Assembly (NCBI GenBank): GCA_011772645.1
Contig: WVZE01000036.1
Coordinates: 48,726-112,725, forward strand
DNA length: 64,000 nt
Source of the DNA: Candidatus Aenigmatarchaeota archaeon
GTDB lineage: Archaea; Aenigmatarchaeota; Aenigmatarchaeia; QMZP01; QMZT01
Direction of reading: 5' to 3'
Position 1 is the first letter of the stretch. The number at the start of each line of letters is the position of its first letter. Position numbers and translations under genes: made by a program. Below are positions 40,619 through 58,502 of the stretch, one piece after another. Under the pieces are notes generated by a model. It saw only the letters and a list, made by a program, of their open reading frames with translations, was not told where the DNA came from and searched no databases.

Positions 40619-41742
40619 CCTCCGGTTCCTGAAAACTTGAGGGTGTTCATTCCCTTCGAGGCTTCGTTGTGGGTGAATTCCACCTTGTTCTCTCCGAGTT
40701 CAACCCCGTCGAGAGAGAGCCTGTTTCCGTTTAATTCTATGTCCAGCCTTCCCTCCCTCAACACCCTGTTGACGTTGAAGGATATCTCCCCTCTCGCTCT
40801 TCCAAGGAGGTTGTAGTCCTCCTCGGTGACGTTGAACTCGCGCGCGCGCTCCGCGCGGGTTGTGGAGAGGACTATGTCGAAATTCAGGTTGTCTATCTGG
40901 AAGACCCTGTTCGCCTTCATCGCGAGTATGTTGTCCCCTACCTTCGCGATGTGCGCGATATCAGAATAGTTGAGCTTTACGGAAACCAGGTGGGTGGGGT
41001 TCTGTTCCCTGTATATCTCGTAACCATTCAGCTTGATCATGATCTCCCCTGTCTGGTCGCTTGTGGTGTAGAAGCGGAGAGTTCCCTGGTGCCATGCCTC
41101 CATCTCGTTCGGATATATCCCGAAGGAGAAGAACTTCTCATCCCCGTATTCGGCTATCACCTTGAAATTCTTCAGGTTGTACGTATTGGAAGCCCAGAAC
41201 TGAAAACCGGGGTTGTCGGCCGAAACCTCCAGGACGTTGGAACTCCTGACGTTGGATTTTTCTATCGAGACATCGTAATGGTTGAGGTTCGCCACCTTCT
41301 CGAAAACATTCTTTCCGTTCCACTTTATCACGAGGTTGGCAAGGAGATTCGTTTCCCCTGTGTCAAAACTTACCTTGACGCTCCTCAGGTCGTTAAGTAT
41401 GTGCTGCCCGACAGCGATGTTGAAACTCTTGCTGTCCGGCTGCGTAACGCCGAACCAAGCGGCTGAGGAAACCTTGAGGTTTGGCAGGCTCGTCGCCCCT
41501 CCGATCTTGAGGTTCTCTGTCTGCGGCCTTCCGAGGACGAACGATCCGAAGTCAACACTCCTCTCAACGTTCTGTTCCGAGAACCCCACGCTTCCGATTG
41601 ATGAGAAGTAGGCCAAGGACTGGTAATTGCCCGTCGTTCCCGTTCCGGCCCAATCCGCAAGTGGCGTTCCGAAAACCATCATTACGCCTATGATAACAAA
41701 GGCCACAACCAGCAAAACCGCGAACGACATATTTTCGTCCAT
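40579..41742 (-). CDS. hypothetical secreted protein with N-terminal TM anchor
   Basis: 387-aa ORF with an N-terminal hydrophobic helix and no known motifs. It overlaps the MBF1 gene start by about 40 nt. Confidence 0.35.
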   Translation of the reverse strand: MDENMSFAVLLVVAFVIIGVMMVFGTPLADWAGTGTTGNYQSLAYFSSIGSVGFSEQNVERSVDFGSFVLGRPQTENLKIGGATSLPNLKVSSAAWFGVTQPDSKSFNIAVGQHILNDLRSVKVSFDTGETNLLANLVIKWNGKNVFEKVANLNHYDVSIEKSNVRSSNVLEVSADNPGFQFWASNTYNLKNFKVIAEYGDEKFFSFGIYPNEMEAWHQGTLRFYTTSDQTGEIMIKLNGYEIYREQNPTHLVSVKLNYSDIAHIAKVGDNILAMKANRVFQIDNLNFDIVLSTTRAERAREFNVTEEDYNLLGRARGEISFNVNRVLREGRLDIELNGNRLSLDGVELGENKVEFTHNEASKGMNTLKFSGTGGWDISEVKVGINY

Positions 41743-42097: not shown

Positions 42098-42250
42098 ATG
42101 AAATATTTACTGAAAAACTTAAGAGGAAGTAAAGTTGCTCTTTACGGACTTGGTCTGGTGGCAGGAGGCGTAGTTTTTAAAATAGCACAGAAAAATCTTA
42201 AAAAATATCCTGTAAATCCGAAGAAGGCAAGAAAGAATGGCGCCTACTAG
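42098..42250 (+). CDS. small membrane protein (paralog pair member)
   Basis: MKYLLKNLRGSKVALYGLGLVAGGVVF. Upstream, GATTTTTAAAACTTACT is conserved with the previous gene. Confidence 0.3.
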   Translation: MKYLLKNLRGSKVALYGLGLVAGGVVFKIAQKNLKKYPVNPKKARKNGAY

Positions 42251-45200
42251 TAATATTTATTCTCTATCCTTGCGAATTTCAGGTAGATCAGGGCAGCGAG
42301 TATCAGGAGGAATACAACCGCGATCGGGGAGAGCCCGGGGAATTCAGGGACGAAGACCGTGGTCACCCATACGCTGTCCTTGTCCTTAAGATCCGAGTCC
42401 ACGAAAGAGCTTGCGGTCACTGTCACATTATATCTAAGCTGTTCGGTGTACAAAATCCTGACTTTAATTTTTCTCTCTTCCTGGGGGTTCAGGTCTATAT
42501 CAGCCTCTGGCTGGTTGTTTATCGCGAATATGGCATTTGAAGGTTCCAGCTTCAAATGAACCGTGTCAAACTTCAGCTGTATGTTCCTCACAGCAACGTC
42601 CAGGGTGTTAAACTTCCCTATCATGGGCATCACGGATTCCGCCTCGAAATTCGCCAGGGGATGCTCGTACATTGTAAGTGAGTAGTAACCTGATGGCGGG
42701 TTCCTCTCCGTTTCTGATGTGTAGGAGTTCAACGTGTAGGAATAGTAATCGATTTTTGTATCGTTTGGGTAAGGTCCCAGCGTTACGACACACATGTTGT
42801 CAAGCAAACACGTCAATGTATCCCATGTCCCGGGTTCGAATCTTGGGTGATAGACTCTGTAGTTAATGGTCATGTTGAGCAGATCCCTGGTCATGTTCAT
42901 GAGTGTTATCGAAACATTCCTGTCCGCACCCGTCTTCCCTCTGTCCCTTATAATGTTGCCGAACTGGTCTATCACGTAAAGTTCCGCCAGCCCGGGGATA
43001 AAGATCGTGGTGTTGGTGTCGTATGTTGTCTTGACCTCCCAGTTGCCTGCGTTGTCCTTGGCGAGCGAGCGGAAGTAGAATCTGTAATTGTTTATCCCGC
43101 CCAGGGGGCTTCCTGCCTCTTCATATGCGTTGAATAATGTGAAAGTCTCTGTCGTACAACTAAACAGCTCCTGCCATGAAGTTAAATTCACGGTATCATT
43201 GTACCGGAATTCTATCTTGTAGCAGTCAATGCCGCTTCCGCTGTCGCTCCCTCCCCAGTAGAGATCGAAAGCGTTTGACTGGGTATAGAAGGGGAGAGTG
43301 GAAACAAGGGAAACAGGCGGTGTGGTGTCGTTCGTGTACTGCCAGCCCGTGTTTATGTATCCTGTCCCTCTCCCGGCCTCGTCGTAAAGGAATGCGTACA
43401 CGCTGTAACTCTTCTGACTGCTTCCTGTGTCTACGGTCCATATCTCGTCAACGCTCGCTCCCGTACAGCTGCCCGAGCAGGAAACCGATTGGATTGTCAG
43501 GTAATTATAGTTCCACATGTTGTCCGTGATGATTCCCGTATCAACATCAACGCTGGATTTTATCTCGTTACCGCTCGCGCATATTTCACCCCAGTTGCAT
43601 CCGCAGCTTTCCGGTGCGCAGCCGCTTGTGAATGTGATGTATTGTCTTGAGGGGGTTGAGACCGAATCAGTGTGCTGTATTCTATGGGTTGTTGTCCCTG
43701 AATTGACCCAGCAGATTTGGTTGGACGTGTCCTCGTAATCACACCCTGAAACCGAGTAGGAAACAAAGGTGGGGTTGGTCTTGTCGATTAATACCTGGGT
43801 TGATTGCGTGCTTTCCTGGTTGCCCGCGTTGTCCGTTGAGCGGTATCTCACGTAGTTGGTTCCTTCGTCCGAAACAATGAAGGAAGAAGAATACGGTATG
43901 GAGGGCGAGCAAGTGTCTGTGGTGTCCACGCAGTACGTTGTGTCAGCGCATCCCGAGCCTCCCGGGTCCGAGCAGGTCAGGGTGACCTGGACGTTCGTTG
44001 TGTACCAGTTGTTCCAGCCCATGGTTCCCGAAAGACTGATGGAAGTGGAGGGAGGCGTCGACTCCAGAATTATGGAATCGCTGTCCTGAATCACGCTGAG
44101 CAGATTGTTCCTAACTTCGTAATAGACTGTTTTTGTTCCGTCGCCCGCTGTCAAAGTCCAGGCTTTCGTTGGCGCACATGCCTCCCAGGTGGTCCAGCTA
44201 CCTCCCTCGTTTCTGTATCTGCAGTCCTTAATGCCCGGACCGACTGGGTCTGAATAGGCCAAATTAAGTGTTACGGAGTTCGAATTCGTATAGGTATCGT
44301 CATTGTTTATAAATATTGATGCCGTCATGCCTACCACTCCTATCAGGTACTGCCAGCCCGTGTCTATGTATCCGGTTTCTCTCCCGGCCTCGTCGTAGAG
44401 GAATGCGTATACGTTATAACTCTTCTGGTTGTTTCCTGTATTTACGGTCCATATCTCGTCAACGCTCGCTCCCGTACAGATGCCCGAGCAGGAAACCGAT
44501 TGGATTGTCAGGTAATCATCGTTCCACATGTGGCTTGTCGTGACTCCCGTATCGACATCAACGCTGGATTTTATCTCGTTTCCTGAGGCGCAGAGCTCGA
44601 TGTTGTTACATCCGCAGTTGTTTGGTGCGCAGCCGCTTGCGAATGCGATGTATTGTCTTGAGGGGGTTGAGACCGAATCAGTGTGCTGTATCTCGTGGGT
44701 TGTTATTGTCCCCGGATTGACCCAGCATGTTTGGGTGGTTGCGTTTTCGTAGTCGCATCCTGAAACCGAGTAGGAAACAAAGGTGGGGTTGGTCTTGTCG
44801 ATTAATACCTGGGTTGATTTCGTGCTTTCCTGGTTGCCCGCGTTGTCCGTTGAGCGGTATCTCACGTAGTTGGTTCCCTCAGGGGAAACGGCGAATGTGG
44901 ATGAATATGATATGGAGGGGGAGCATGTGTTTGTTGAATCTATGCAGTATCTTGTGAAATCGCAGTCAGAACCTCCTGAATCCGAGCAGGTAAGGGTGAC
45001 CTGGACGTCCGTTGTGTACCAGTTGTTCCAGCCCATGGTACCCGAAAGGCTGATGGAAGTGGAGGGGTCTGTTGTGTCCACCATAAGACGGGAGGAAACA
45101 TCCGTGTCGTAGTTCCCAGCCGAATCCTCGACCCACAAACACAGCCAGTCATTACGGTTGGTGTTTACCGTTATAACCGAACTTGTTGTTGAAAATGTGT

Positions 45201-48200
45201 AGCTTGATTTTGAACCGGAACACGTCCCGTCTGAGTCGAAGTAATACCACTTGGTTGATATGCAGCCGGAGCCTCCTGAATCCGAGCAGGAGAGTGTTAT
45301 ATCGTCTGAATTCACCCATGTTGTCGATTCGCCGGTTATGCTTGCAGTTGGATTTGTCTTGTCCACCCTGAATTCGACAGGGCTTGAAAATCCCGTGTTG
45401 CCCACGTTGTCCCTCGCCGCTGCGCACACCCACCTGTGGCTGGAGATGGTCTGGGGGGAGGCTAGGGTGTAGGAAGAGTAGGTGGAGGGGCAGCTCCCCG
45501 GGTTGGATGCGTACGTTACCAATCTGTAAGAACCTGCGTTGCAGCCGGAGCCTCCCGGGTCAGAGCAGGAAACGCTCGCCGTGGCGTCTGTGTTCTGCCA
45601 GGAAGCGGGAGCTCCCGTTACGGAGACCGAAGGGGAGGTTTTGTCCACTGTGAACGAATGGTCCGTTCCGTCGAATCTCAGAGACCATCCTCCGTTGGGC
45701 TCGAAGTCTGACCAGAGCCCGCAATAATCGACTGTCCAAGTCCCTCCCGGATCGCCCGATTGTATGGTGTAGGAGAAGGTCACACTAGTTCCCCAGTTGT
45801 TGAAGTATATTATGGAACCGCCCGGCTTTGCGAGTCTGCATTCGGAAATTATGGTGAATCCTGATGGGCTTCTTGAAACGCCTGAGAGGGAGATCTGGAT
45901 GGTGTCCCCTACTGAGTAATAGCCTGAGGGATAGGTGTATGAACTCCAAGTTCCGGTTACCTGCGTTGAGGTTCCTCCTTTCGTGCAGGAGGTGTAGCTG
46001 TTCGAACACACGCGATTGGAGTCGCATTTGTAGGAACCCGTCCTCCCGCAGGTGGAGTCTACCCAGATTCTCTGGTTACCAACACCCGGGCTGGGGGCGG
46101 CGCAGTCCAAAAGACATCCTCCCTGAGCGTAACAGTTCTCGCTGGAGTCGCAGATACCTGGTAGACCTATGCACGGGTCTCCGCATATCAGGCCTTGGCA
46201 TGCCCCTGTTTCCAAACGGAAGTTATTGCTCTGTTTTGTGGACTCCTGGTTGCCCACGCTGTCTCTCGAGTAGAAGCATACAACCTTGTTGCAGATCTGG
46301 CCTGCCGGGCATGTCACGCTTCCCGACGTTCCCGTGGTGAATCCTGTTGTCCCGCAGGACCCTCCCTGGTTGATAACCCTGTAATAAGTGGATGAACATC
46401 CCGAACCTCCTGAATCAGAGCAGGTCAGGGTGAAGGAAACGGAAGTTGTGGAATAACTCCCGCCGTTGGGTGATATGGATGTGGTCGGACCTGATACATC
46501 CCTCCATTCGCCGCCAACACACTGGGAACCCGCCATTCCCGGACGAGCAGCTCCTTCGCTGTAACATGCACTTTGCCAAACACAATCATTCGCGTTGTTG
46601 CAGCATGCATCATCACTCGAACTGGAAGTGCAGGCGTATCCGTCGCACTGCCTTGTTCTCCTGTATTCGTTCGAATCATCCCCGCAGCAGGTTGTTGCGT
46701 CCACTTCTCCTCCTATGTTCCAGCGGTTTGAACCGGCGATAGCTCCGCATTGCGTGCTTCCCGCGTCTCCTCCCTGCCACGTCCCTGCGTTGCAGTAGTT
46801 CCTGCTGGGGATGCTTCCTCTTGTTGAGGTTGATGAATAACAGGTGGAGTAGTAGACGCAGTCGTTGTTCGCGTTACAGCAGGCGTCGTCCGAGGATGAG
46901 GAGGAATAGGTCGAATCTGTTCCAGCGACTCTCGTTCTCCTGTTTTCACCCGAATCGTCGCCGCAACATGCGGTCGCTGCTACTTCGCCGCCAATTGCCC
47001 AGAATCCACCGCCGCAACCGCATAAATATGAATTGTAATCACCATTGGTCCGAAAAACTGCATCATAACATGCAGTGTAACCTCCGGCACACCAATCCTC
47101 TCCGGCATCGTCTCCGCAACAATCTCCCACTGAATCATCCCAGCAATTGCTTTCTCCTCCAGAACAGGTTCCCTGTGTCCCGCTCACTTCGCACTCGCAG
47201 GCACTCTGAACATTGTCAGGTTCCCTGGCAGGACCAGACCTATCACAACCATTTGCATTAATACCATCACAATAACCTTGAGTCTGATATCCGAATCCAC
47301 CGTTATTGTAAGCATTATCGGCTAGGTCATTACTTGTACATGCCCAAGCGGTGTTACATAGGTAACCAGTTCCCCTTATTGTATAAGGATGGCTGCTTGT
47401 ATCACAGCATACCCCACTGGAGCATTCATCATTAGCCGCCCATATTCCGTTTGATTGACATATAATGGCACCGCTTAAAGCAGTTTGACCACTTGAATAA
47501 CATACACCATTATAAACGCAATCACTACTTGAACTGCAGCAAGCATCGTCTGAACTGCTACTGCTACATCCGGAATCACATTGTCTTGTCCTTCTATTCT
47601 CTCCGGAGTCGTCACCGCAGCAGGTTGTTGCTGCCACTTCTCCTCCTATGTTCCAGCGGTTTGAACCGGCGATAGCTCCGCATTGCGTGCTTCCCGCGTC
47701 TCCTCCCTGCCACGTCCCTGCGTTGCAGTAGTTCCTGCTGGGGATGCTTCCCCTTGTTGAGGTTGATGAATAACAGGTGGAGTAGTAGACGCAGTCGCTG
47801 CTCGCATCACAGCAGGCGTCGTCCGAACTTGAGGAGGAATAGGTCGAATCTGTTCCCGCGACTCTTGTCCTCCTGTATTCGCCCGAATCGTCACCACAAC
47901 ATGTGGTCGCGGCGACTTCTCCTCCTATGTTCCACCTTCCCGTTGCCTCGCATGCATCGCAGTAAGCTTGACCTGCATCAGAATCATACCACGTACCGCT
48001 GCCGCAGTAAGCATCGTCTGAACGGCATGCCCCCGAAGAATAACAGGTGTTTGAATAGACGCAGTCACCGCCCGCATTACAACAGGCGTCGTCCGAACTT
48101 GAGGAGGAACACCAGGAATTGCACACCCTTGTTCTCCTGTATTCGCCCGAATCATCGCCGCAGCAGACACTCCCGGCGACCTCGCCTCCTATGTTCCAGC

Positions 48201-49992
48201 GGTTTGAACCGGCGATAGCTCCGCATTGCGTGCTTCCCGCGTCTCCACCCTGCCACGTCCCTGCATTGCAGTAAGCCTTGTTGGGGACTGCCGGGGGGGA
48301 GGTTCCTCCGGATGATGTGCACGCATCATTGTATGTGCAATCTGTGTTTGCATTACAGCAGGTTGTAATTCCGTCGTTGTAACCTGAAGGGGCGTCGGTT
48401 CCGCCAGTTTCTGTCCTTCTGTACTCGCCCGAATCGTCACCGCAGCAGTTTGTCGCTGCTACCTCACCGCCGATTGCCCAATTACCACCACCACAACTGC
48501 ATAAATATGAATTGTAATCACCATTGGTCCGAAAAACTGCATCATAACATGCAGTGTAACCTCCGGCACACCAATCCTCTCCGGAGTCGTCGCCGCAACA
48601 ATCTCCTACTGACTCATCCCAGCAATTGCTTTCCCCTCCAGAACAGGTTCCCTGGGTTCCGCTCGCTTCACATTCGCAGGCGCTCTGGTAATTGTCAGGC
48701 TCTCTGGCAACGCCCGAGACGTCACAACTCCCGCCGCCGTCACAGTATCCCTGGGTCTCGTACCCGAACCCGCCATTGTTATAAGCGTTATTGGTTTGCT
48801 CGGCGCTCGTACACGCCCAAGCGGTGTTGCATGGTGTGTTCGCCTGGATGCCGCAGGTGCTTGTCAGAACATCTCCTGCTGGAGCAGTTACAGGATACTG
48901 CTCATAATAACTTGTAGCTGCCGTGTCGCAAACGCCGCTCCCGTCGCATTCAGAGTAACGAATATATCCTGAACAACTTCCGGCAGTACAAAAATAATTG
49001 GTATTATCATCACACGAGAGTATTTCTGAAGTTGCATCAACGCTGCTTGCAGAATAACAGGCTTTGTAAGCGGGCGTGTTGTAAATGGCGCGTGCGCATT
49101 CGCCTAATCCGTCACAAACGCCCGTTCCCCCATCAATTGCGCACTGGGATGCAATGCAGGGACCTCCCCCGAAACATCTGTTGCCCGGGTCTGTCCCGGC
49201 CGGCGCCGGGTCGCAGTCTGGGTAGGCGTCGTAACATCCGTAACAAAGCGCGCAGTTGTCTGCCCTGCCATCGGAATAAACCCCACAGGCCCCGCCCGTG
49301 CAGGTGCCTGTCAGGCAGTCAGTTGTGCTGCACTCGCTGCGAGGATCGGTTCCGTCAGGTACGTTTTCGCATAATACATCAGTATCATAACACCCTTGAC
49401 AGATCCCGCAGTTAGCCTTCCTTCCGTCAGAATAGGCAGCACATCCTCCACCAGCAGCACAACTACCTGTTCTGCATTGCGATGTATCACAATCATTATT
49501 TGGGTCTGTTCCTGCATTTGCATCCTGACAACCACCAGCCCCATTACAAACCCTGCAGGTGGCAGGGCAATCATCGTTTGGATCTGTTCCTGCAGGAATA
49601 AAACTCCCGCTGCTGTCGCAGCAGGTAGTTCCCGGGGTGCATGCTGTACCGCAGATGCCATTCACACGGGTCCCGGAACAACATCTGCAGTCAGTAGGAG
49701 CGGAATTACCATCCAAAATACAACACACGCCCCTCCCGCTACATGTTTTGCAAAATGAGGCACCAGGACAAGTTGCGGCTTCTTCGTAGCAATTACTGGT
49801 ATCCTCCCCGGGTGGACAGAATCTTGTTGATGCACGCCGGCAAACTATTAAAATATCGCCAGTGGAGCAATAATTTGAGCCGCAATTAGCCGCACTAGTA
49901 CAACCATCCAGACAAGCAGCGCTAACCCCGTAACTCAAAACATTTAAAAGGATAACCGAATAAAACACCGCGATGACACACTTTGCCTTCAT
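42247..49992 (-). CDS. giant (2581 aa) secreted cysteine-rich surface protein with Ig-like repeats and C-terminal EFPGL-TM-basic sorting-signal-like tail
   Basis: Signal peptide. The N-terminal ~1000 aa are Cys-rich with at least 6 CCGDDSGEYRRTR repeat units. It has a conserved ~170-aa CGLWSDF module and two near-identical ~250-aa repeats. Ig-like units carry Y.STDNAGN.E. The C-terminus reads VPEFPGLSPIAVVFLLILAALIYLKFARIENKYY. Confidence 0.7.
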   Translation of the reverse strand: MKAKCVIAVFYSVILLNVLSYGVSAACLDGCTSAANCGSNYCSTGDILIVCRRASTRFCPPGEDTSNCYEEAATCPGASFCKTCSGRGVCCILDGNSAPTDCRCCSGTRVNGICGTACTPGTTCCDSSGSFIPAGTDPNDDCPATCRVCNGAGGCQDANAGTDPNNDCDTSQCRTGSCAAGGGCAAYSDGRKANCGICQGCYDTDVLCENVPDGTDPRSECSTTDCLTGTCTGGACGVYSDGRADNCALCYGCYDAYPDCDPAPAGTDPGNRCFGGGPCIASQCAIDGGTGVCDGLGECARAIYNTPAYKACYSASSVDATSEILSCDDNTNYFCTAGSCSGYIRYSECDGSGVCDTAATSYYEQYPVTAPAGDVLTSTCGIQANTPCNTAWACTSAEQTNNAYNNGGFGYETQGYCDGGGSCDVSGVAREPDNYQSACECEASGTQGTCSGGESNCWDESVGDCCGDDSGEDWCAGGYTACYDAVFRTNGDYNSYLCSCGGGNWAIGGEVAATNCCGDDSGEYRRTETGGTDAPSGYNDGITTCCNANTDCTYNDACTSSGGTSPPAVPNKAYCNAGTWQGGDAGSTQCGAIAGSNRWNIGGEVAGSVCCGDDSGEYRRTRVCNSWCSSSSSDDACCNAGGDCVYSNTCYSSGACRSDDAYCGSGTWYDSDAGQAYCDACEATGRWNIGGEVAATTCCGDDSGEYRRTRVAGTDSTYSSSSSDDACCDASSDCVYYSTCYSSTSTRGSIPSRNYCNAGTWQGGDAGSTQCGAIAGSNRWNIGGEVAATTCCGDDSGENRRTRQCDSGCSSSSSDDACCSSSSDCVYNGVCYSSGQTALSGAIICQSNGIWAANDECSSGVCCDTSSHPYTIRGTGYLCNTAWACTSNDLADNAYNNGGFGYQTQGYCDGINANGCDRSGPAREPDNVQSACECEVSGTQGTCSGGESNCWDDSVGDCCGDDAGEDWCAGGYTACYDAVFRTNGDYNSYLCGCGGGFWAIGGEVAATACCGDDSGENRRTRVAGTDSTYSSSSSDDACCNANNDCVYYSTCYSSTSTRGSIPSRNYCNAGTWQGGDAGSTQCGAIAGSNRWNIGGEVDATTCCGDDSNEYRRTRQCDGYACTSSSSDDACCNNANDCVWQSACYSEGAARPGMAGSQCVGGEWRDVSGPTTSISPNGGSYSTTSVSFTLTCSDSGGSGCSSTYYRVINQGGSCGTTGFTTGTSGSVTCPAGQICNKVVCFYSRDSVGNQESTKQSNNFRLETGACQGLICGDPCIGLPGICDSSENCYAQGGCLLDCAAPSPGVGNQRIWVDSTCGRTGSYKCDSNRVCSNSYTSCTKGGTSTQVTGTWSSYTYPSGYYSVGDTIQISLSGVSRSPSGFTIISECRLAKPGGSIIYFNNWGTSVTFSYTIQSGDPGGTWTVDYCGLWSDFEPNGGWSLRFDGTDHSFTVDKTSPSVSVTGAPASWQNTDATASVSCSDPGGSGCNAGSYRLVTYASNPGSCPSTYSSYTLASPQTISSHRWVCAAARDNVGNTGFSSPVEFRVDKTNPTASITGESTTWVNSDDITLSCSDSGGSGCISTKWYYFDSDGTCSGSKSSYTFSTTSSVITVNTNRNDWLCLWVEDSAGNYDTDVSSRLMVDTTDPSTSISLSGTMGWNNWYTTDVQVTLTCSDSGGSDCDFTRYCIDSTNTCSPSISYSSTFAVSPEGTNYVRYRSTDNAGNQESTKSTQVLIDKTNPTFVSYSVSGCDYENATTQTCWVNPGTITTHEIQHTDSVSTPSRQYIAFASGCAPNNCGCNNIELCASGNEIKSSVDVDTGVTTSHMWNDDYLTIQSVSCSGICTGASVDEIWTVNTGNNQKSYNVYAFLYDEAGRETGYIDTGWQYLIGVVGMTASIFINNDDTYTNSNSVTLNLAYSDPVGPGIKDCRYRNEGGSWTTWEACAPTKAWTLTAGDGTKTVYYEVRNNLLSVIQDSDSIILESTPPSTSISLSGTMGWNNWYTTNVQVTLTCSDPGGSGCADTTYCVDTTDTCSPSIPYSSSFIVSDEGTNYVRYRSTDNAGNQESTQSTQVLIDKTNPTFVSYSVSGCDYEDTSNQICWVNSGTTTHRIQHTDSVSTPSRQYITFTSGCAPESCGCNWGEICASGNEIKSSVDVDTGIITDNMWNYNYLTIQSVSCSGSCTGASVDEIWTVDTGSSQKSYSVYAFLYDEAGRGTGYINTGWQYTNDTTPPVSLVSTLPFYTQSNAFDLYWGGSDSGSGIDCYKIEFRYNDTVNLTSWQELFSCTTETFTLFNAYEEAGSPLGGINNYRFYFRSLAKDNAGNWEVKTTYDTNTTIFIPGLAELYVIDQFGNIIRDRGKTGADRNVSITLMNMTRDLLNMTINYRVYHPRFEPGTWDTLTCLLDNMCVVTLGPYPNDTKIDYYSYTLNSYTSETERNPPSGYYSLTMYEHPLANFEAESVMPMIGKFNTLDVAVRNIQLKFDTVHLKLEPSNAIFAINNQPEADIDLNPQEERKIKVRILYTEQLRYNVTVTASSFVDSDLKDKDSVWVTTVFVPEFPGLSPIAVVFLLILAALIYLKFARIENKYY

Positions 49993-50019
49993 TAATTAAT
50001 AATTATTGATTTCTATTAA

Positions 50020-53000
50020 TTAATCCTTTATTTTGACGAGTTTTACATAGATAAGAACTGATAGTAACAACAAAAATACTATTGCAGGCCAGTTCAGGCC
50101 CGGGAAGTCCGCGGGCGTCGCGATTTTTATCTCCAGCCAGTCGCTGTCCGCAAGCTGGGGGTCGGTTAGGGAATTCGCATTCACGGTCAGATTGAAATTC
50201 CCCAAAGATCTCGGGTATATTCTTGCGATCACCTCTCTGTATTCCTGGGGGTTCATCTGCAGATCCAGGGTTCGGTTTCCCGTTTCCGCGAACATCGCCT
50301 CCTGCATGTTCAGTGAGAGGCGAATCGTGTCCGCTATCAGCTGGGAATTTCTGACCAGAATTTTTATAATTCCCCCTCTTCCTATGGTCATGTGGAATTT
50401 CTCATCCACAGCGAACTTTACCATGGTCAGGAAGATAGTGGTGTACGTGTCGAATCCTGTCTTTGTTTCCTGGTTTCCCGCGTTGTCCCTGGCAAGCGAG
50501 CGGAAGTAGAAGGTGTAGCCGTCCGGGTTTGAACCTGCCGCCTGCTCAGCGTCGAATATCGTGCTTGTTTGTTTCGTGCATTCCCCATCGGAAAAATTTA
50601 TGTTCATAACAGGACTTTCCGGTTCGCTCTGCGGCCTGTACTTGTACTGTATAATGTAGCAATCCAAACCGCTCTCGTCATCCGTCCCGTTCCATGAGAG
50701 GTTAAAAGACTTTTGGGCCATGTACGTTGATAGCAACCGAACTCTGGAGGTTGGGGAGACCTTGTCAACCTTGAATTCAACAGGGCTTGAGAATCCCTCG
50801 TTTTCCGCTCTATCCTTTGCTGCCCCGCACACCCAGACGTGGCTCGAAATGGTCTGGGGGGAGGGAAGGGTGTAGGAGGCGTAGTCAGAGGGACAGCTTC
50901 CGGGGTTTGAATCGTAGGTTATCAATCTGTAAGAACCTGCGTTGCAGCCGGAGCCTCCCGGGTCAGAGCAGGAAACGCTCGCCGTGGCGTCTGTATTCTG
51001 CCAGAGTGGGGCAACATCGTCCACAGAGACTATTGGGGGGATTTTGTCAACCTTGAATTCGACAGGGCTTGAGAATCCCTCGTTGCCCATGTTATCCCTC
51101 GCCGCTGCGCACACCCACCTGTGGCTGGATATTGTCTGGGGGGAGGGAAGGGTGTAGGAGGCGTAGTCAGAGGGACAGCTTCCGGGGTTTGAATCGTATG
51201 TCAAAAGCATGTAGGTTGAGGGGTCGCATGGGCCTGTATTGCTCACGCATGTCACGTTCGCAGTGGCGTCTGTGTTTTGCCAGGAAGCGGGAGCCCCTGT
51301 CACGGAAACTGTCACCTGGATCTCATCCACTGTGAACGTCCGATCCGTACCGTCAAATTCGAGAACCCATCCGGTGTTGGACTCGAAGTCTGACCAGAGT
51401 CCGCAATAATCAACTGTCCATGTTCCGAGCGGATCCGCATCCTGTATGGTGTAGGGGAAGGTCACACTTGTTCCCCAGTTGTTGAAGTATATTGAAGATC
51501 CGCTCGGCTTTACGAGTCTGCATTCCGAGAGTATGGTGAAACCCGATGGCGAGTTCGAAACCCCGTTCAGTCTTATGTTTATGGTCTGGCCTGCATAGTA
51601 TGTTCCGCTCGGAGGAACGTAAGAAGTCCAGTCCCCTGTCACCTGTCTTGGAATTCCCCCCATCGTGCATGAGGTGTAGCTGTTGGAGCACACGTGCCGT
51701 GGACCGCACTTGTAGGAGCCCGTCCTCCCGCAGTTCGAATCTACCCATCTTCTTTCAGCATTGGGTCCTGTTGAAGGGACGGAACAATCCAGGAAGCATC
51801 CTCCGCCTGAATAACATTCATCCTCTCCGTTGCAGATTCCTCCCGGGCATGGCGTTCCGCACGGCTGTTGGTAGCAAACATTCGCTGTTATGCCGTCGCT
51901 CGAGCCCACGTCGCTCCACAGGCCCGAATTGCTCCTGGCCCTGACATTGAAATAATAGGTTTCGCCGTTGGAAAGGCTGAGACCGCTTCTGGTGACCTCC
52001 CTTAGCAACCCTCTTGAGGTCCAGCCGACTTCGCTGTTCCACCCGGAATTCGGGTATCTGGCGGTTCCTATTGCGTATTGATATTCTGCTATCCCCGAGC
52101 TTGAAGTGGACTGTGTCCAGGTCGCATGGAGAGTTGTAAGCGAGGAGGTGTAATCACCGTCATCCGTCACGACCGGTGTTGTGGGCGTCCCGTCATCCAC
52201 CATCAGCCGGGAGGAAACATCCGTGTCGTAGTTCCCAGCCGAATCCTCGACCCACAGGCACAGCCAGTCGTTATGAACTCCTGTTATGGTAAGCGTGTTG
52301 CTCGTTGTAGAGAGGTAGTAGGAGGATTTGGAAGAGGAACACGTTCCGTCTGAGTCGAAGTAATACCATCTGGTTGATAAGCAGCCTGAATCTCCGGTAT
52401 CGGTGCAAACGAGGTTTACGGTATCCGATGTAACCCACACCGTTGACTCCCCGGTTATGTCAGCCACCGGGTTTATCTTATCAATCCTGAATTCGACAGG
52501 GTTTGAAACCCCTGTGTTGCCTGCGTTGTCCCTCGCCGCTGCGCACACCCAGACGTGGCTGGAAATGGTCTGGGGGGAGGAGAGGGTGTAGGAGGCGTAG
52601 TCAGAGGGACAGCTTCCGGGGTTGGATGCGTACGTTCTCAGTCTATACGTCCCTGCATCGCAGCCGGAGCCTCCTGAATCCGAACAGGAAACGCTCGCCG
52701 TGGCGTCTGTATTCTGCCAGGAAGCTGGAGCTCCCGTTACGGAGACCGAAGGGGAGGTTTTGTCAATCCTTACCCGGGTTGATCTCGTGCTTTCCTGGTT
52801 GCCAGCGTTGTCCGTTGAGTAGTATCTCACGTAGCGTGTTCCCTCGCTGGAAATTGTGAACTGGGAAGAATAAACTGTTGAGGGCGAGCAAGTGTTTGAG
52901 GTGTCCACGCAGTATCTCGTGGCTGAACAGCCAGAACCACCCTGTCCGTCCGAGCAGGTCAGGGTTACATCGACGTTTGTCACATACCAACCGCTCAAAC

Positions 53001-53901
53001 CCTGGGTCCCGGAAAGCGTGATGGTGGTGATCGGAGGATCTGTATCTTCCGGGCAAAGGACCGGGTCAGTCTCGCACCCAGGCAAGCCGGCACTGCAGGT
53101 CTCGGTGAAGGCACAGGTCTGATCGGTAGCCCAGAGACCATATACCGTGCTTCCCGTACACTGAGCCGAATTCCCTGAACAATACTGGTTGTTAGTCTGC
53201 CTTTCCAGCGTGGCTCCGCACCCGTTAGAATCCCCTCCCACGCACCTGTATTCATTCCAAGTGTCGCAAACCTCGGATGTGGATTCATAGCAACCGGAAA
53301 GCGTTCCTGTTGTGCAGCAGGGACCTGACCAACATTGAGAGGTGATGCAGACTCCTCCGCAGCATGACCCACAACATGAAGTCGAAGCCGAACATGTGCA
53401 TCCTATGTTAGGAGGTTTTCTGCAAACAAGCCCGCACGCAGCCCAGCAAGTATCGGTGCCGCAGCAACCCGTCTCATCCATCAAACACCCGCCATCTCCA
53501 TGGGTATGTGACGCCGTTCCCTGCCAGCTGGGCCCGGAAGCCTGTATGCCAGCGCAATCGCATTCGTTCCTTCCCTCCCAGCTGCACGTCCAGATGCTGC
53601 ACCTGGTTGCGCTCGGGCAATCCCTCCGGGCGAGAGTGTTACCGCAAAATATCCCTCCTTCGCCACACCATGCTCCGCACGTATCCGTTCCCTGGTGGTC
53701 CCAGTCACAGTCACACCAGGTACAGCCGTTGCTAATGCAGTCATCCTTCGAATCTTCGTAATCTCCGCAGTTTTTGTCCGCGGGTCCCCTGCATGTAAAG
53801 ACCCTGTGTATCGTGGCAGAAGCCGAATAAGCTGTTGTGAATATAAAAAGGAGGATCACCACCGATATAACAAAAAATTTGTAAATGTCTTTTTTCATCA
53901 A
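50020..53901 (-). CDS. giant (1293 aa) paralogous cysteine-rich surface protein with DFPGL-TM-basic C-terminal tail
   Basis: Signal peptide and a Cys-rich N-domain. There are three internal copies of the GAPASWQNTDATA...SNPGSCPSDYASYTL.SPQTISSH.WVC unit. A ~200-aa block is about 85-90% identical to the 2581-aa neighbour. The C-terminus reads ATPADFPGLNWPAIVFLLLLSVLIYVKLVKIKD. Confidence 0.7.
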   Translation of the reverse strand: MMKKDIYKFFVISVVILLFIFTTAYSASATIHRVFTCRGPADKNCGDYEDSKDDCISNGCTWCDCDWDHQGTDTCGAWCGEGGIFCGNTLARRDCPSATRCSIWTCSWEGRNECDCAGIQASGPSWQGTASHTHGDGGCLMDETGCCGTDTCWAACGLVCRKPPNIGCTCSASTSCCGSCCGGVCITSQCWSGPCCTTGTLSGCYESTSEVCDTWNEYRCVGGDSNGCGATLERQTNNQYCSGNSAQCTGSTVYGLWATDQTCAFTETCSAGLPGCETDPVLCPEDTDPPITTITLSGTQGLSGWYVTNVDVTLTCSDGQGGSGCSATRYCVDTSNTCSPSTVYSSQFTISSEGTRYVRYYSTDNAGNQESTRSTRVRIDKTSPSVSVTGAPASWQNTDATASVSCSDSGGSGCDAGTYRLRTYASNPGSCPSDYASYTLSSPQTISSHVWVCAAARDNAGNTGVSNPVEFRIDKINPVADITGESTVWVTSDTVNLVCTDTGDSGCLSTRWYYFDSDGTCSSSKSSYYLSTTSNTLTITGVHNDWLCLWVEDSAGNYDTDVSSRLMVDDGTPTTPVVTDDGDYTSSLTTLHATWTQSTSSSGIAEYQYAIGTARYPNSGWNSEVGWTSRGLLREVTRSGLSLSNGETYYFNVRARSNSGLWSDVGSSDGITANVCYQQPCGTPCPGGICNGEDECYSGGGCFLDCSVPSTGPNAERRWVDSNCGRTGSYKCGPRHVCSNSYTSCTMGGIPRQVTGDWTSYVPPSGTYYAGQTINIRLNGVSNSPSGFTILSECRLVKPSGSSIYFNNWGTSVTFPYTIQDADPLGTWTVDYCGLWSDFESNTGWVLEFDGTDRTFTVDEIQVTVSVTGAPASWQNTDATANVTCVSNTGPCDPSTYMLLTYDSNPGSCPSDYASYTLPSPQTISSHRWVCAAARDNMGNEGFSSPVEFKVDKIPPIVSVDDVAPLWQNTDATASVSCSDPGGSGCNAGSYRLITYDSNPGSCPSDYASYTLPSPQTISSHVWVCGAAKDRAENEGFSSPVEFKVDKVSPTSRVRLLSTYMAQKSFNLSWNGTDDESGLDCYIIQYKYRPQSEPESPVMNINFSDGECTKQTSTIFDAEQAAGSNPDGYTFYFRSLARDNAGNQETKTGFDTYTTIFLTMVKFAVDEKFHMTIGRGGIIKILVRNSQLIADTIRLSLNMQEAMFAETGNRTLDLQMNPQEYREVIARIYPRSLGNFNLTVNANSLTDPQLADSDWLEIKIATPADFPGLNWPAIVFLLLLSVLIYVKLVKIKD

Positions 53902-53930
53902 TTATATAATTGGTTATGGGTAATTATTAG

Positions 53931-56900
53931 TTAAACCCTTCCTTTAACCACAAGTTTCAGGTAGATCAGGACAGCCAGAACCAGAAGCATACACACTCCA
54001 AACCAGTTCAGGCCAGGGAAGTCCGCGGGCATGAACACCACGATTCTCAGGCTATCGAAATCGTCAAGCATGGGGTCCGCTATGAGGGAATTCGCGTTGA
54101 GGTTAAGGGTGTATCCATCGAGACCGGAAGGGTATATCCTTGCGTAAACCACTCTCTCCTCCTGGGGATTGAGGTCAACAATGAGTGACCGGTTTCCGCT
54201 CTCTATGAACCTCGCATACTCGGAATCCAGTTCCAGATAAACACTGTCGAATCTGGTCTGGATGTTTCGAACTTCTATTCCTATGATGTCCGATCTCCCC
54301 ACCCTTGAGTAGAGCTCCTCCTTCGGGACGAAATTCGCCAGGGGATGGGTGTACATGGTGAAGTGGTAGAAGAACGGTTCGGGAGGGTTCCTCTCATCCT
54401 GAGAGCCGTCTATCGTCTGTGCGTAGGCAAAATAGCTGATCCGCATCTTATTTTTATATCTGCCTGCGGTGAGGTTGACCGAGTAAACCATGTTCTGCGT
54501 GTCCGTTGTGATGCCGCCAGTCAGGGGGTCCGAGCCCGGGGTGTGGTTGTAGTAGGTAAGGCTAATGTTGAGCAATCCCACGCTGGGAGTCCTGTTCGTT
54601 GCGATTATCATAACGATCCTGTCCGCTGATACCTTGCCCTCGTTGGGGATTAAGAATCCGCTGGATAAATCCACGGCGTAGACGTTCGTCAGATCCGGGA
54701 TGAAGATCGTGGTGTTGGTGTCGTAAGTTGTTTTAATTTCCTGGTTGCCAGCGATATCACTCGCAAGCGAACGGAAGTAGAATACGTACTCGTTAACGTT
54801 CGGCACCCCTGCCGCTGCCTGCGCATCAAACCCTGTCTCAGTTTCCAGAGTGCAGCTCTCCCCGTTAACCAAAAGGTCTGTCCAGTCCGTAAGTGTAAGA
54901 GTGTCGTTGTATTTGTATTGTATTGTGTAACAATACAAACCGCTCTCGTTGTCACCTCCTGTCCATGATATGTTGAACCTTGTCTCGGTCACGAATCCCG
55001 GCAGGGGGAGGACGTTAGAATAGGGCGGCTCGTCATCAATGCCCACGTTATTCACTGCCAAGCTGTTTTCGTTTCCTATCGTGTCGTTCGCCTTCACCCT
55101 GAAGGTGTATAAGCCGTCCTTCACGGAATTCACGCTAAACAGGGATGTCCAGGTTGAGTCCTGCCTGCTCATTGGAACCCACTGACCGGAACCTGTTGAG
55201 TTCTCCCACCTGTAGACAACTTCTGAAACCCCTGATCCCTGGTCCGTTACGGTTGCGTTAACCGTGAAGTCCGAGTTGTACCATGTATTTGGAGTGGGGA
55301 TATGAACGGTGACGTCCGGGGGAACCACATCGATAACGATGTCGACCGTTACCTCGCTTTCGTGACCCAGCGTGTCGTTCGCTTTGACCCTTACCGTGTA
55401 ATTCCCGTCAGCCAGTCCTGTTATGTCAAAATTCGCTGTAAAGAAATCCGTCCCTCCCCCTCTTGACATGGAAACCCAAGATCCCGTTCCTGTTGAGTTC
55501 TCCCACCTGTAAGCCACGGACTCCACGTTCGACCATGCATCCGTTACGGTTGCGTTTACCAGGAAGTCTGACTTGTGAAGGCTGTTCGGGAGCGGGGAGT
55601 TTATCGTTATAACTGGAGGGGTCCTGTCAACCGTGAAAGTCTGGTTGGTTCCGTCAAACCTCAGTTCCCACCCCCCGTTAGCCAGGAAATCCGACCAGAG
55701 CCCGCAGTAGTCCAGCGTCCAAACGCCTTCCGGGTCTGTTGCCTGTATGGTGTAGGAGAAAACCAGATTTCCAGACCCCCAGTTGTTGAAAAAGATAACA
55801 TTCCCGTTTGATTTAAACAGCATGCATTCTGTAAGTATGGTGAAGGCTAAGGGCGTGTTTGAGATCCCGCTAATCGTTATCTGGAAAGCTTCGTTCTCAT
55901 CATAATAACCGGATGGGGATGTGTAAGAACTCCAGTCCCCTGTCACCTGCATTGAACTCCCTCCGAGTGTGCAGGAATTATAGCTGTTGGAACACACTTG
56001 TTGCGGACCGCACTTGTAGGAGCCCGTTCTCCCGCAGTTCGAATTTTCCCATCTCCTTTCTTCACCGGGTCCCAGGGAAGGGGCCGAACAATCCAGGAGG
56101 CATCCACCGTCCGGGTAACAGTTCCCCTCAGGGCCATCGCACACGCCGGTAATTACGAGGCATGTTTGTCCGCACTGCCTGTTCAGGCACGCATCCGTTT
56201 TCAGGATGAAGACGTTGCTTTGTTTGACCGCTTCCTGGTTGCCCGCGTTGTCCGTGGAGTAAAAACATACCCTTTTGTAGCAGGTCTGTCCGAACGGGCA
56301 GGTCACGTCCCCTGAACTCCCCTGTGTGAATCCGGTGGATCCGCATGCCTGGCCGTCATCTATTATCTTGTAATAGGAATTGTCGCAGCCCGATCCTCCA
56401 GTGTCCGTGCATGTTAAAGTAAAGCTGGTTTCGTTGCTTCCCGTGAAGTTCCCTCCGTTCGGGTTTATGTTGGTGACCGGAGGGGTTGTGTCCTCCCAAA
56501 CCCCGTTAACGCAAGAGGCCCCTGTCACGGTCGGGTGGTTCGCTCCGTTGTTGTAGCATACGTCATTCAGAACGCAGTCGCTCGTCTGATCGCAGCAGGA
56601 GTCATCGCCCGAACTTGAACTGCAGGCGTATCCGTCGCACTGCCTTGTTCGAACGTATTCGTTCGAATCATCACCGCAGCAGTTCGCTATACCTCCTATG
56701 TTGTATCTCCCGCCTCCGAGACATGCCCCGCATGTGTTCGGGTTTGTGTCGGGATCGTAGGTTTTCTGTGTGCAGGTATCAAGCCCCGGACAAGAGTCTG
56801 CTGAATCATCAGCGTAGTATTCCCTGAACATGCAGCCAGCTCCTCCGGGGCACGCATTCGAATCCATGCAGCCCTCTGTCCCGCTGGAGCCGGGGGTCGT

Positions 56901-58502
56901 TGAAAAGCGATCGGATGGACAGCCCGCTCCTGTCCCGCCCGTACAAACACCCGTGGTTGCCGGATCGTCGTTCGTGTCGTTCCCTGTTGCGACAACCTCG
57001 ATATCCGGGCAGGTGTAGGTTCTCGAGGGGCAGGAAGCGCCGCTCGCGTAGTATTCTGTGAGCTGAGTTGTGGACGTGCAAACATCGTCGTATGCTGATG
57101 AGGTGCAAGACCCGGCGGAACAGCCCGTGTAATCCGTGCACGTTCCCGCCGTGAGGGGGACGTCTCCCCCGTCCGAATCAACAGAGGCCTTGGTCAGGCA
57201 ATCTTCAACCAAGGACCACGAGCCGGCAGAACATGAGCCAACCGCATTCGAATTCCAGGGGGAACAGTAATTGCCCTGGGAATAGCAGGTTCCCGAATAA
57301 ACGCAATCACTCGCTTGGTTACAACATGTGTCATCGCTCGGGCTCGAACTACAGCCTGACGTGCATGTTCTTGAATTGTACGCTTCGCCGCCATCATCAC
57401 CGCAGCAGTTGGTCAGGCACAGTTCTCCTGTGCAGTCCCCGCTGCCGCCAGCATTCCATTCCTGATTGCATCCCTCGCAGTATGTTTGATCGTTATCAGG
57501 ATCCCTGTTGGCATCTAAAACACAGCTTGCTCCAGGAGAGGGGTTTGAAGTGCAGCACCAGTTGTCATCATCGCAGTCAGTGGAGCCGCTGCAGGCATAA
57601 GTCTGATAAACGCAGGAATCCGGCCCGGTTCCGCACGTACCGGAACAAACATCATAATCACTACACATCGTCCATGCCCCGGCATCCCTCTGGCAGGCGC
57701 ATCTCGGATTGCTCGCGCTCGAGCCACAGGTTCCGTCATTCACGCAGGTGCAGTCATATCTCTGTCTCATGTTCCCCCTGCAGTAATACCCATCGCCACT
57801 ATCGCAATCAGTTGTTGTTGATGATGCGATTTTGCATGCACCTTCATCACAGTGATAATCCGTAGTCTGCACGTCTTTTGACATACCTGATCCCACGCAG
57901 GTAGCGGTATCATCGTTATCGCAGTTATAGTAACGATCTTCGCATAATGTCCCATCTGTTTTGTATTCCTGTAATCTCTGTGGCTGAGTAGCGGTACCGT
58001 CGCATCTATCACGATATGTCTCTGATGTGCAAACAGCCGAAACGTCGTCACAATCATCATAATCGTCACAATATTGTGGTGTGTAGGGGTTGAAAGTTGA
58101 AGTTCCTCCAGAAGCTATTGACAAACAGTCCTGCGAAGAGTAACTGCATGAGCAAGCTGCTCCGCACGTCCCGCCGTAGTATCTGACCTCACTTGCACTG
58201 CAATAATCGACGCAGTCGGCATTGGTTTCGCATTCAGCATCGCAATAAGTTACGCTGCAGTCACACCCCAAGAACGTGCAGGTTCCGATGGGATCAGCAA
58301 ATTCGCAGGTACTGGCAGTGCAATAATAAACACCAAGACAGCAGTTTTGACAGTCAGGGTCATACATGCACGAACCCGGACAATCGGCTGCCTGAGGTTG
58401 GACGTTTTGCATGGTAACAAACAATGAAAGAATGATCACGAGAGGTAGAAATATTGTGGTTTTGTGTAGACTTAGTTTTGAATAGAAACTCTTCACCCTC
58501 AT
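53931..58502 (-). CDS. giant (1523 aa) paralogous cysteine-rich surface protein with DFPGL-TM-basic C-terminal tail
   Basis: Signal peptide and a Cys-rich N-domain including CCGDDGGE/CCGDDSNEY units. It shares the CGLWSDF module and has a two-fold VTD..S.V..V.YRWENSTG repeat. The C-terminus reads MPADFPGLNWFGVCMLLVLAVLIYLKLVVKGRV. Confidence 0.7.
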   Translation of the reverse strand: MRVKSFYSKLSLHKTTIFLPLVIILSLFVTMQNVQPQAADCPGSCMYDPDCQNCCLGVYYCTASTCEFADPIGTCTFLGCDCSVTYCDAECETNADCVDYCSASEVRYYGGTCGAACSCSYSSQDCLSIASGGTSTFNPYTPQYCDDYDDCDDVSAVCTSETYRDRCDGTATQPQRLQEYKTDGTLCEDRYYNCDNDDTATCVGSGMSKDVQTTDYHCDEGACKIASSTTTDCDSGDGYYCRGNMRQRYDCTCVNDGTCGSSASNPRCACQRDAGAWTMCSDYDVCSGTCGTGPDSCVYQTYACSGSTDCDDDNWCCTSNPSPGASCVLDANRDPDNDQTYCEGCNQEWNAGGSGDCTGELCLTNCCGDDGGEAYNSRTCTSGCSSSPSDDTCCNQASDCVYSGTCYSQGNYCSPWNSNAVGSCSAGSWSLVEDCLTKASVDSDGGDVPLTAGTCTDYTGCSAGSCTSSAYDDVCTSTTQLTEYYASGASCPSRTYTCPDIEVVATGNDTNDDPATTGVCTGGTGAGCPSDRFSTTPGSSGTEGCMDSNACPGGAGCMFREYYADDSADSCPGLDTCTQKTYDPDTNPNTCGACLGGGRYNIGGIANCCGDDSNEYVRTRQCDGYACSSSSGDDSCCDQTSDCVLNDVCYNNGANHPTVTGASCVNGVWEDTTPPVTNINPNGGNFTGSNETSFTLTCTDTGGSGCDNSYYKIIDDGQACGSTGFTQGSSGDVTCPFGQTCYKRVCFYSTDNAGNQEAVKQSNVFILKTDACLNRQCGQTCLVITGVCDGPEGNCYPDGGCLLDCSAPSLGPGEERRWENSNCGRTGSYKCGPQQVCSNSYNSCTLGGSSMQVTGDWSSYTSPSGYYDENEAFQITISGISNTPLAFTILTECMLFKSNGNVIFFNNWGSGNLVFSYTIQATDPEGVWTLDYCGLWSDFLANGGWELRFDGTNQTFTVDRTPPVITINSPLPNSLHKSDFLVNATVTDAWSNVESVAYRWENSTGTGSWVSMSRGGGTDFFTANFDITGLADGNYTVRVKANDTLGHESEVTVDIVIDVVPPDVTVHIPTPNTWYNSDFTVNATVTDQGSGVSEVVYRWENSTGSGQWVPMSRQDSTWTSLFSVNSVKDGLYTFRVKANDTIGNENSLAVNNVGIDDEPPYSNVLPLPGFVTETRFNISWTGGDNESGLYCYTIQYKYNDTLTLTDWTDLLVNGESCTLETETGFDAQAAAGVPNVNEYVFYFRSLASDIAGNQEIKTTYDTNTTIFIPDLTNVYAVDLSSGFLIPNEGKVSADRIVMIIATNRTPSVGLLNISLTYYNHTPGSDPLTGGITTDTQNMVYSVNLTAGRYKNKMRISYFAYAQTIDGSQDERNPPEPFFYHFTMYTHPLANFVPKEELYSRVGRSDIIGIEVRNIQTRFDSVYLELDSEYARFIESGNRSLIVDLNPQEERVVYARIYPSGLDGYTLNLNANSLIADPMLDDFDSLRIVVFMPADFPGLNWFGVCMLLVLAVLIYLKLVVKGRV

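Follow-up and report, generated by a model that had tools for sequence, protein, structure and literature searches.

What do three giant tandem genes of a DPANN archaeon encode, and what holds their products at the cell surface? The genes lie in a 64,000-nucleotide stretch of contig WVZE01000036.1 (the window), which belongs to a metagenome-assembled genome of Candidatus Aenigmarchaeota (DPANN), a tiny archaeon and probably a symbiont. Three consecutive minus-strand open reading frames (ORFs) encode cysteine-rich paralogs of 2581, 1293 and 1523 aa, each of which terminates in a single hydrophobic helix. An initial annotation, made from the sequence letters, had read these tails as resembling a sorting signal, of no class that it recognised, and the proteins as candidate adhesins or surface-layer (S-layer)-like components. 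We found that the helix is the end of a larger C-terminal cassette that is uncatalogued in Pfam and NCBIfam and is found on a wide variety of unrelated ectodomains in Aenigmarchaeota, where it may serve as a membrane anchor.

Structure of the three-gene locus

When the ORFs were derived anew, their coordinates, sizes and strand matched the initial annotation exactly. The intergenic gaps across the locus are 27 and 29 bp, and a gene for the potassium transporter TrkH (58568-59965) lies on the same strand, 65 bp upstream of gene 3. The genes and their putative signal peptides, the latter placed by sequence inspection, are as follows.

42247-49992, minus strand: gene 1, ORF for a giant Cys-rich surface protein of 2581 aa
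50020-53901, minus strand: gene 2, ORF for a paralog of 1293 aa, start TTG then immediately ATG
53931-58502, minus strand: gene 3, ORF for a paralog of 1523 aa
49918-49992, minus strand: putative Sec signal peptide of gene 1, aa 1-25 (MKAKCVIAVFYSVILLNVLSYGVSA/A boundary)
53815-53901, minus strand: putative signal peptide of gene 2, aa 1-29 (..FTTAYSASA/T boundary)
58389-58502, minus strand: putative signal peptide of gene 3, aa 1-38 (..VTMQNVQPQA/A boundary)

The GenBank counterpart of gene 1, NIO23089.1 (GTN38_03630, 2472 aa), lies on a contig of 115.6 kb and has an N-terminus that is 109 residues shorter (49666-49992 omitted), and this model is without the signal-peptide-like N-terminus of our ORF; the longer start is more plausible. 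Read by eye, the N-termini of all three proteins pass from basic through hydrophobic to small residues in the manner of Sec signal peptides; the signal peptides first proposed are treated here as putative. The high cysteine content that had been claimed is equally clear, as cysteine accounts for 7.5%, 5.8% and 6.8% of the products of genes 1, 2 and 3, against 0-3% in nearly all remaining ORFs of the window, the exceptions including two large proteins with 4.6% and 7.1%. The C-terminal tails read as originally written (..VPEFPGLSPIAVVFLLILAALIYLKFARIENKYY, ..PADFPGLNWPAIVFLLLLSVLIYVKLVKIKD and ..PADFPGLNWFGVCMLLVLAVLIYLKLVVKGRV for genes 1, 2 and 3, respectively), with the hydrophobic helix followed by a basic end in each. 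Overall, the three paralogs are ~30-33% identical, with some blocks far closer.

A conserved C-terminal cassette

The last ~135 aa of the three proteins align well, running from VRNxQ...NPQE[EY]R... through [ED]FPGL and the helix to IY[LV]K and the basic end. An exhaustive HMMER search, run against 1.84 billion cluster representatives, brought up 206 relatives of this region at E <= 1e-3, including 106 at E <= 1e-10. Among the 150 listed of these 206 matches, nearly all sit at the extreme C-terminus of the protein (54-2799 aa in length), and the matches cover the entire cassette profile except in protein fragments. A word index misses the family: a word-seeded search with the three-tail alignment recovered one relative, a syntenic metagenome fragment, and the same kind of search with a 48-sequence alignment recovered none. 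A scan of a genome collection with a narrow alignment gave 2 loci.

The relatives share an anchor motif, [YF]-P-x-x-F-[PS]-[GE]-L, which was present in 146 of the 151 tails examined and is followed by a median of 24 residues; of the 146 motif-bearing tails, 144 continue beyond the helix with Lys or Arg. The initial annotation had allowed that the tails might turn out to be ordinary anchors with no conserved tripartite signal elsewhere. What we found is a tripartite tail conserved far beyond the three paralogs. Residue frequencies were taken from a hidden Markov model (HMM) alignment of the 146 C-termini, with positions counted from the near-invariant Phe (0).

Position -3: Pro, 88%
Position 0: Phe, 98%
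Position +1: Pro or Ser, 95%
Position +2: Gly or Glu, 97%
Position +3: Leu, Ile or Met, 94%
Position +6: chiefly Trp or Phe
Position +7: small residue, 94%
Position +11: Leu, 74%
Position +15: Ala or Ser, 98%
Position +19: Tyr or Phe, 94%

The residue just before the Phe is E, S, D or N in the family consensus, and the motif occurs in the clade-specific variants FPGL, FSGL, FSEL and FPEF. It is the 8-column window of highest information in the 139-column unit, with 2.85 bits per column, compared with 1.74 bits in the upstream sandwich and 2.02 bits in the helix, and this degree of order goes far beyond the needs of a generic stop-transfer anchor. Within the helix, one face is conserved with i+4 spacing (+7 small, +11 Leu, +15 Ala/Ser, +19 Tyr).

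An AlphaFold2 (AF2) model of the gene 1 cassette was confident (pLDDT, the predicted local distance difference test, 93) and consists of a beta-sandwich followed by the helix. A specific function could not be assigned to the sandwich, for which a fold search matched only generic Ig-, MG-, FN3- or carbohydrate-binding-like structures. The cassettes of the window were delimited as follows, that of gene 1 from the family search, the AF2 model and the information content.

42250-42666, minus strand: gene 1 cassette, aa 2443-2581
42355-42666, minus strand: sandwich of the gene 1 cassette
42331-42354, minus strand: gene 1 motif FVPEFPGL
42280-42324, minus strand: gene 1 helix
42250-42279, minus strand: gene 1 tail KFARIENKYY
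50023-50430, minus strand: gene 2 cassette, aa 1158-1293, with TPADFPGL at 50095-50118, helix at 50044-50088 and tail KLVKIKD
53934-54344, minus strand: gene 3 cassette, aa 1387-1523, with MPADFPGL at 54009-54032, helix at 53958-54002 and tail KLVVKGRV

The tail and the module upstream of it were then each given an HMM of their own, and both HMMs were run on every ORF of 243 kb of DNA, comprising the window and ten related loci. The tail HMM matched 17 ORFs, all 17 of which also matched the module HMM, and no module-bearing ORF in the 243 kb was without a tail match. The unit is a cassette of ~135 aa, made up of an Ig-like beta-sandwich of ~100 aa and the tail, and the tail is never free-standing. 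The signal-like tail of the initial annotation is thus tripartite and conserved as proposed, but not the self-contained unit of ~40 aa that had been envisaged.

No catalogued family describes this unit. A Pfam scan of 48 members found none that covers the cassette, giving scattered weak Ig-like matches only, and an NCBIfam scan of 125 family tails returned only sub-threshold matches (12 to midcut-by-XrtH, 9 to IPTL-CTERM and 4 to PEF-CTERM; best E ~1e-3). The known classes PGF-CTERM, PEFG, VPXXXP, PIP, Loki-CTERM and Heimdall-CTERM were likewise set aside, as they gave either no matches or scattered ones below threshold. The earlier impression that the tail falls outside the named classes was therefore correct.

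Taxonomic range and genomic setting of the cassette

All members with a source name come from Ca. Aenigmarchaeota (NIO23089.1, MCK5022897.1, MCD6590639.1, MBN1896468.1 and MBN2330886.1), and among these members the cassette is phylum-specific. A distant locus of the "YPASFPGL" type, L002, can be placed in the same phylum by its histidyl-tRNA synthetase (HisRS), which is 52-65% identical to those of named Aenigmarchaeota. The cassette is also portable, being fused to many unrelated ectodomains. Its passengers include ConA-like lectin/LamG domains, GLUG with M26_N, a NosD-type right-handed beta-helix, Big_13 and the Cys-rich/OmpL47 type, and several members have an ectodomain without any Pfam match. 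There are three copies in the window, three in locus L004 and two in L002. L002, a 59-kb contig, also holds a stand-alone ORF of 146 aa (9195-9635) just upstream of a full-length cassette protein; it comprises sandwich, motif and helix only, has no signal peptide, and could be what is left of a decayed gene or else a small protein with a tail anchor.

The three-gene tandem recurs in L004, a GTDB species representative, and the close relatives L006 and L009 have a single cassette gene at the same position, flanked by TrkH and by a conserved 380-aa/helix-turn-helix (HTH)/YjbQ/M20/metallophosphoesterase block. The L004 paralogs are mosaics of those in the window, one of them (L004-C) joining a protein-1-like middle to a protein-2-like C-terminus. 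The window and L004 have undergone a recent tandem expansion with domain shuffling, a pattern expected of surface proteins under diversifying pressure. The first two L004 paralogs also carry identical helix segments (LSWFAICLLLIFSVLIYLKLVS, at 10300-10402 and 14530-14629 of L004); because their ectodomains have diverged, this identity suggests gene conversion of the cassette.

Directly downstream of the cassette gene lies a gene for a 387-aa protein (40579-41742, minus strand), which is Cys-free, has one N-terminal helix and matches no family. Its counterparts in L003, L006 and L009 are 73%, 51% and 49% identical, respectively. We rejected it as a partner of the cassette, as it is conserved in close relatives only and was not seen at the distant loci.

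Ectodomains of the three proteins

The repeat with the signature Y-x-S-x-D-x-AGN-x-E is present as the initial annotation described, but it is not new: it corresponds to NCBIfam NF047446, an OmpL47-type beta-barrel domain. With a cut-off of 40 bits, this model scores 95.2 bits on protein 1 (three stretches) and 53.1 on protein 2, while the 34.5 bits on protein 3 fall below it. Protein 3 has Big_7, Big_13, Big_3_3 and Y_Y_Y domains above their own Pfam cut-offs. The following further features were located in the ectodomains.

46498-48831, minus strand: gene 1, aa 388-1165, a Cys-rich repeat region with eight CCGDD motifs
43336-45096, minus strand: gene 1, two copies of a ~250-aa block, aa 1633-1882 and 1971-2219, containing OmpL47-type domains
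45613-46209, minus strand: gene 1 CGRTGSYKC...CGLWSDF module, aa 1262-1460, whose N-terminal part is disulfide-rich and precedes a beta-sandwich
51295-51891, minus strand: gene 2 CGRTGSYKC...CGLWSDF module, aa 671-869
55596-56195, minus strand: gene 3 CGRTGSYKC...CGLWSDF module, aa 770-969

The internal duplications of protein 1 appear recent, with identities of up to 94% among the CCGDD repeats and 81-85% between the ~250-aa block copies. The CGRTGSYKC...CGLWSDF module (~200 aa) is indeed shared, with 57-76% identity from paralog to paralog, but its predicted structure gave no more than generic matches: no specific function emerged from the fold search, which found Ig-, MG-, FN3- or carbohydrate-binding-like folds, and the module amounts to a generic disulfide-rich beta-sandwich.

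These ectodomains resemble bacterial fibrillar surface proteins of the OmpL47-type/Big-domain kind in their long strings of Ig-like/beta-barrel domains and in the Y-x-S-x-D-x-AGN-x-E signature. They differ from them in the archaeal host, the very high cysteine content and the CCGDD repeats, and in having a C-terminal cassette with a helix where the bacterial proteins have an outer-membrane or cell-wall anchor. We read the locus as a tandem expansion, specific to this lineage, of genes that encode giant, disulfide-rich, multi-Ig cell-surface proteins, most plausibly adhesins or contact proteins.

Membrane anchor or sorting signal

The reading that we favour, with a probability of roughly 50%, is that these proteins are adhesin-like and are tethered to the membrane by an anchoring cassette specific to the lineage, whose helix is retained as the anchor. 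Each protein would be exported by its N-terminal Sec signal peptide, after which its C-terminal cassette would tether it to the cytoplasmic membrane with type I topology, the sandwich sitting on the membrane. The Ig-like sandwich passes without a linker into [YF]-P-x-x-F-[PS]-[GE]-L, and then into a helix of ~15 residues with aromatics at both ends (W/F at +6, Y at +19), beyond which a Lys/Arg-rich stretch of 7-10 residues would lie in the cytoplasm. The motif and one helix face are the most strongly constrained parts, which implies that a partner in the membrane recognises them, and the retained helix could pack against such a partner or against itself. A retained anchor is favoured because the aromatics at both helix ends fit a stably embedded segment and because no sortase-like gene was found in the window or in eight further neighbourhoods.

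A comparison can be drawn with giant surface proteins of other DPANN lineages, such as the SPEARE proteins of Nanohaloarchaeum antarcticus, an archaeon that depends on a host and has a small genome. These proteins are reportedly very large, fast-evolving, multi-domain and secreted, and are said to have been proposed to act in host contact. Their likeness to the proteins of this locus is one of general description, and the cassette itself was found only in Aenigmarchaeota, among source-named members.

Several points weigh against a plain retained anchor on an adhesin. A motif so conserved outside the membrane is commoner in enzyme-recognised signals (LPXTG, PEP, PGF) than in plain anchors, and the median length after the motif equals that of enzyme-recognised signals. 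At four distant loci, the cassette gene stands beside glycosylation/radical-SAM clusters, a setting that fits a major envelope glycoprotein. Finally, we infer the role in adhesion or host contact only from the domain types and from reports that DPANN archaea are symbiotic and depend on hosts.

A more tentative possibility is that the tail is a true sorting signal, in which P-x-x-F-P-G-L and the helix are recognised after export and cleaved by a dedicated membrane enzyme. This enzyme could be an archaeosortase/exosortase homolog, a rhomboid-type sortase or another protein, and it could either lipid-anchor the substrate, as ArtA does, or release it. The cassette might then, at similarly tentative odds, be the signal of a sorting system unrecognised in DPANN, be it the first of the archaeosortase type there or one with an unrelated enzyme. 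The tripartite layout at the extreme C-terminus, with its basic residues after the helix, speaks for such a signal, as do the concentration of constraint in the motif, the length that follows it, and the clade variants of the motif, which would be expected if it co-evolved with an enzyme. The weak HMM matches of the tails are mostly to signals of the exosortase/archaeosortase type. Like generic signals of that type, in which the extreme C-terminus combines a motif with a helix and a cluster of basic residues, the cassette occurs in several copies per genome or contig on proteins with unrelated N-terminal regions; generic signals, however, are self-contained units of ~25-40 aa, whereas this tail is always found beside the beta-sandwich.

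One difficulty is the enzyme. As the initial annotation had stated, no exosortase/archaeosortase homolog is encoded within the 64-kb window, where just three ORFs are multi-pass membrane proteins (a generic rhomboid, a CNNM/CorC-type transporter and TrkH), and neither PF09721 nor another recognisable sorting enzyme was found in eight further neighbourhoods of +/-10 kb. The sole intramembrane protease candidate of the window is the following.

1946-2584, minus strand: rhomboid-family intramembrane protease, 212 aa

It was rejected as a rhombosortase, as it reaches only 31.9 bits on that model, where the cut-off is 84, and lies ~40 kb from the locus. In L005 and L008, a conserved five-helix membrane ORF of 184-190 aa accompanies the cassette gene. 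It was also considered as a Cys-dependent sortase and rejected, since one copy is Cys-free and neither copy has a family match; its position probably reflects local synteny. According to a 2018 review, archaeosortases are found in a subset of Euryarchaeota (PMC6098224), and our literature search found no report of an archaeosortase in any DPANN lineage; a comparative-genomics paper on Aenigmarchaeota mentions neither sortases nor cassette proteins (PMC8407114).

The closest precedent for a sorting signal with its own upstream domain is the pairing of PGF-pre-PGF with PGF-CTERM. PGF-pre-PGF (TIGR04213) is a dedicated domain that precedes PGF-CTERM (TIGR04126). In the Haloferax S-layer glycoprotein, as in the cassette, a dedicated extracellular domain is followed by a motif, a helix and a basic tail. 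Both motifs contain Pro, Gly and Phe, but the order in the cassette is F-P-G rather than P-G-F, a Ser/Thr-rich linker is missing and the beta-sandwich is of an unrelated family. The PGF-pre-PGF HMM did not match any of the three window proteins, and PGF-CTERM did not match the cassette proteins at E <= 1 or E <= 10. Processing by ArtA, which comprises cleavage and lipid anchoring of its substrates, is blocked when PGF is permuted to PFG (PMC6098224). The window does encode a PGF-pre-PGF protein elsewhere.

7762-10908, plus strand: 1048-aa surface protein with 4.6% Cys and a strong PGF-pre-PGF domain (TIGR04213, 102 bits)

PGF-CTERM and the PGF motif are absent from this protein, which ends in a plain helix and KRKREFLWK, with weak sub-threshold similarity to Loki-CTERM and Heimdall-CTERM only. 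A PGF-pre-PGF protein without a PGF motif gives a weak hint that ArtA-type processing is not used in the source organism, and to that extent counts against a sorting signal of this kind. The gene lies in a low-GC stretch (0.35-0.37).

Less probable still, though worth weighing against the tethered adhesins preferred here, is that the cassette proteins are the main S-layer-like envelope glycoproteins, with the cassette as a membrane stalk. Support for it comes from four distant Aenigmarchaeota-type contigs, in which the cassette gene was observed head-to-head with an array of 3-6 radical-SAM genes (some SPASM).

L005, 2408-9463: radical-SAM/glycosylation array
L007, 610-9650: radical-SAM/glycosylation array
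L008, 262-6649: radical-SAM/glycosylation array
L010, 300-9954: radical-SAM/glycosylation array

Glycosyltransferases, DegT aminotransferases, an Asn-synthase fusion and a UDP-sugar dehydrogenase are encoded in the arrays as well, and together these genes may serve to modify glycans of the surface protein specifically. The conserved genomic position of the cassette gene among housekeeping genes and the 6-20 N-x-S/T sequons in each of the three window proteins point the same way. However, a lattice-forming S-layer protein is usually a single conserved and abundant species, while the ectodomains here are extremely variable and mosaic, with differing passengers, 1-3 copies and a wide size range. 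Moreover, no glycosylation/radical-SAM cluster adjoins the window locus, and no S-layer family in Pfam or NCBIfam matched. None of our results demonstrates the S-layer-like role suggested initially.

The cassette was also compared with PEF-CTERM, whose pairing with ArtC is documented (PMC5244752). Both are archaeal and sit at the extreme C-terminus, with a Pro/acidic/Phe signature, a hydrophobic helix and a basic end, and a literal PEF occurs in protein 1 (VPEFPGL), where proteins 2 and 3 have PADFPGL. PEF-CTERM (TIGR03024, cut-off 23 bits) scored 10.7 bits on full-length protein 1 and 18.6 bits (E = 0.0016) on its isolated tail, both below the cut-off, and gave no match on proteins 2 and 3 (A-D-F); weak matches appeared in 4 of the 125 family tails (best E = 0.0015), leaving 121 (97%) without one. 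The cassette motif is longer and always fused to a specific beta-sandwich, with a consensus Pro three residues ahead of the Phe and a conserved P/S-G/E-L after it, and PEF-CTERM/ArtC has been reported from Methanosarcinales and ANME-2 genomes, whereas the cassette comes from DPANN. With no ArtC gene seen in the window or the eight neighbourhoods either, it is very unlikely that the cassette proteins are archaeosortase C substrates of a divergent PEF-CTERM type.

Other features of the window

Apart from the cassette locus, several features of the window fit an archaeon, namely a gene for RNA polymerase subunit E', ORFs with class III signal peptides and a tRNA-His gene. The following were recorded.

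26205-29510, plus strand: 1101-aa protein with 7.1% Cys and a signal-peptide-like N-terminus
13551-14815 and 15361-16662, plus strand: three small ORFs with class III (pilin-like) signal peptides, then a HerA/DUF87-type ATPase

The 1101-aa protein has a C-terminal stretch rich in Asp, Glu, Arg and Lys that looks helical by eye, and it has no membrane anchor; it matched nothing in Pfam or NCBIfam. The class III signal peptides read MRAQTAFEYM.., MKAQTGVEFM.. and MKKGQVWSLDF.., and these ORFs and the ATPase gene may make up a locus for a pilus or a similar surface filament. GC content peaks in the cassette locus (0.48-0.55), and regions of this composition alternate with low-GC stretches (0.34-0.37) at 6001-10000, 20001-22000 and 38001-40000. 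A scan for bacterial-type promoters and terminators gave counts no different from those in shuffled sequence, and such a scan is not applicable to archaea.

Implications for DPANN surface biology

DPANN archaea probably live attached to host cells, yet hardly any of the proteins that make this contact are known, most being annotated as hypothetical. The cassette, with its beta-sandwich, P-x-x-F-P-G-L motif and helix, is a compact and searchable marker that picks out membrane-tethered surface proteins across the whole phylum Aenigmarchaeota, whatever their ectodomain, and yields a ready list of candidate host-contact proteins. A curated model of it would improve the annotation of several hundred giant proteins now called "hypothetical". 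If the helix is a permanent anchor, its conserved face would still predict a specific membrane partner. If, on the other hand, the motif is recognised by an enzyme, sortase-like processing of surface proteins would extend to DPANN and the motif would point to a new enzyme; the giant adhesins would then be cleaved at the membrane surface and either lipid-anchored or released, which would give these host-dependent cells a means of regulated display or shedding of their contact proteins.

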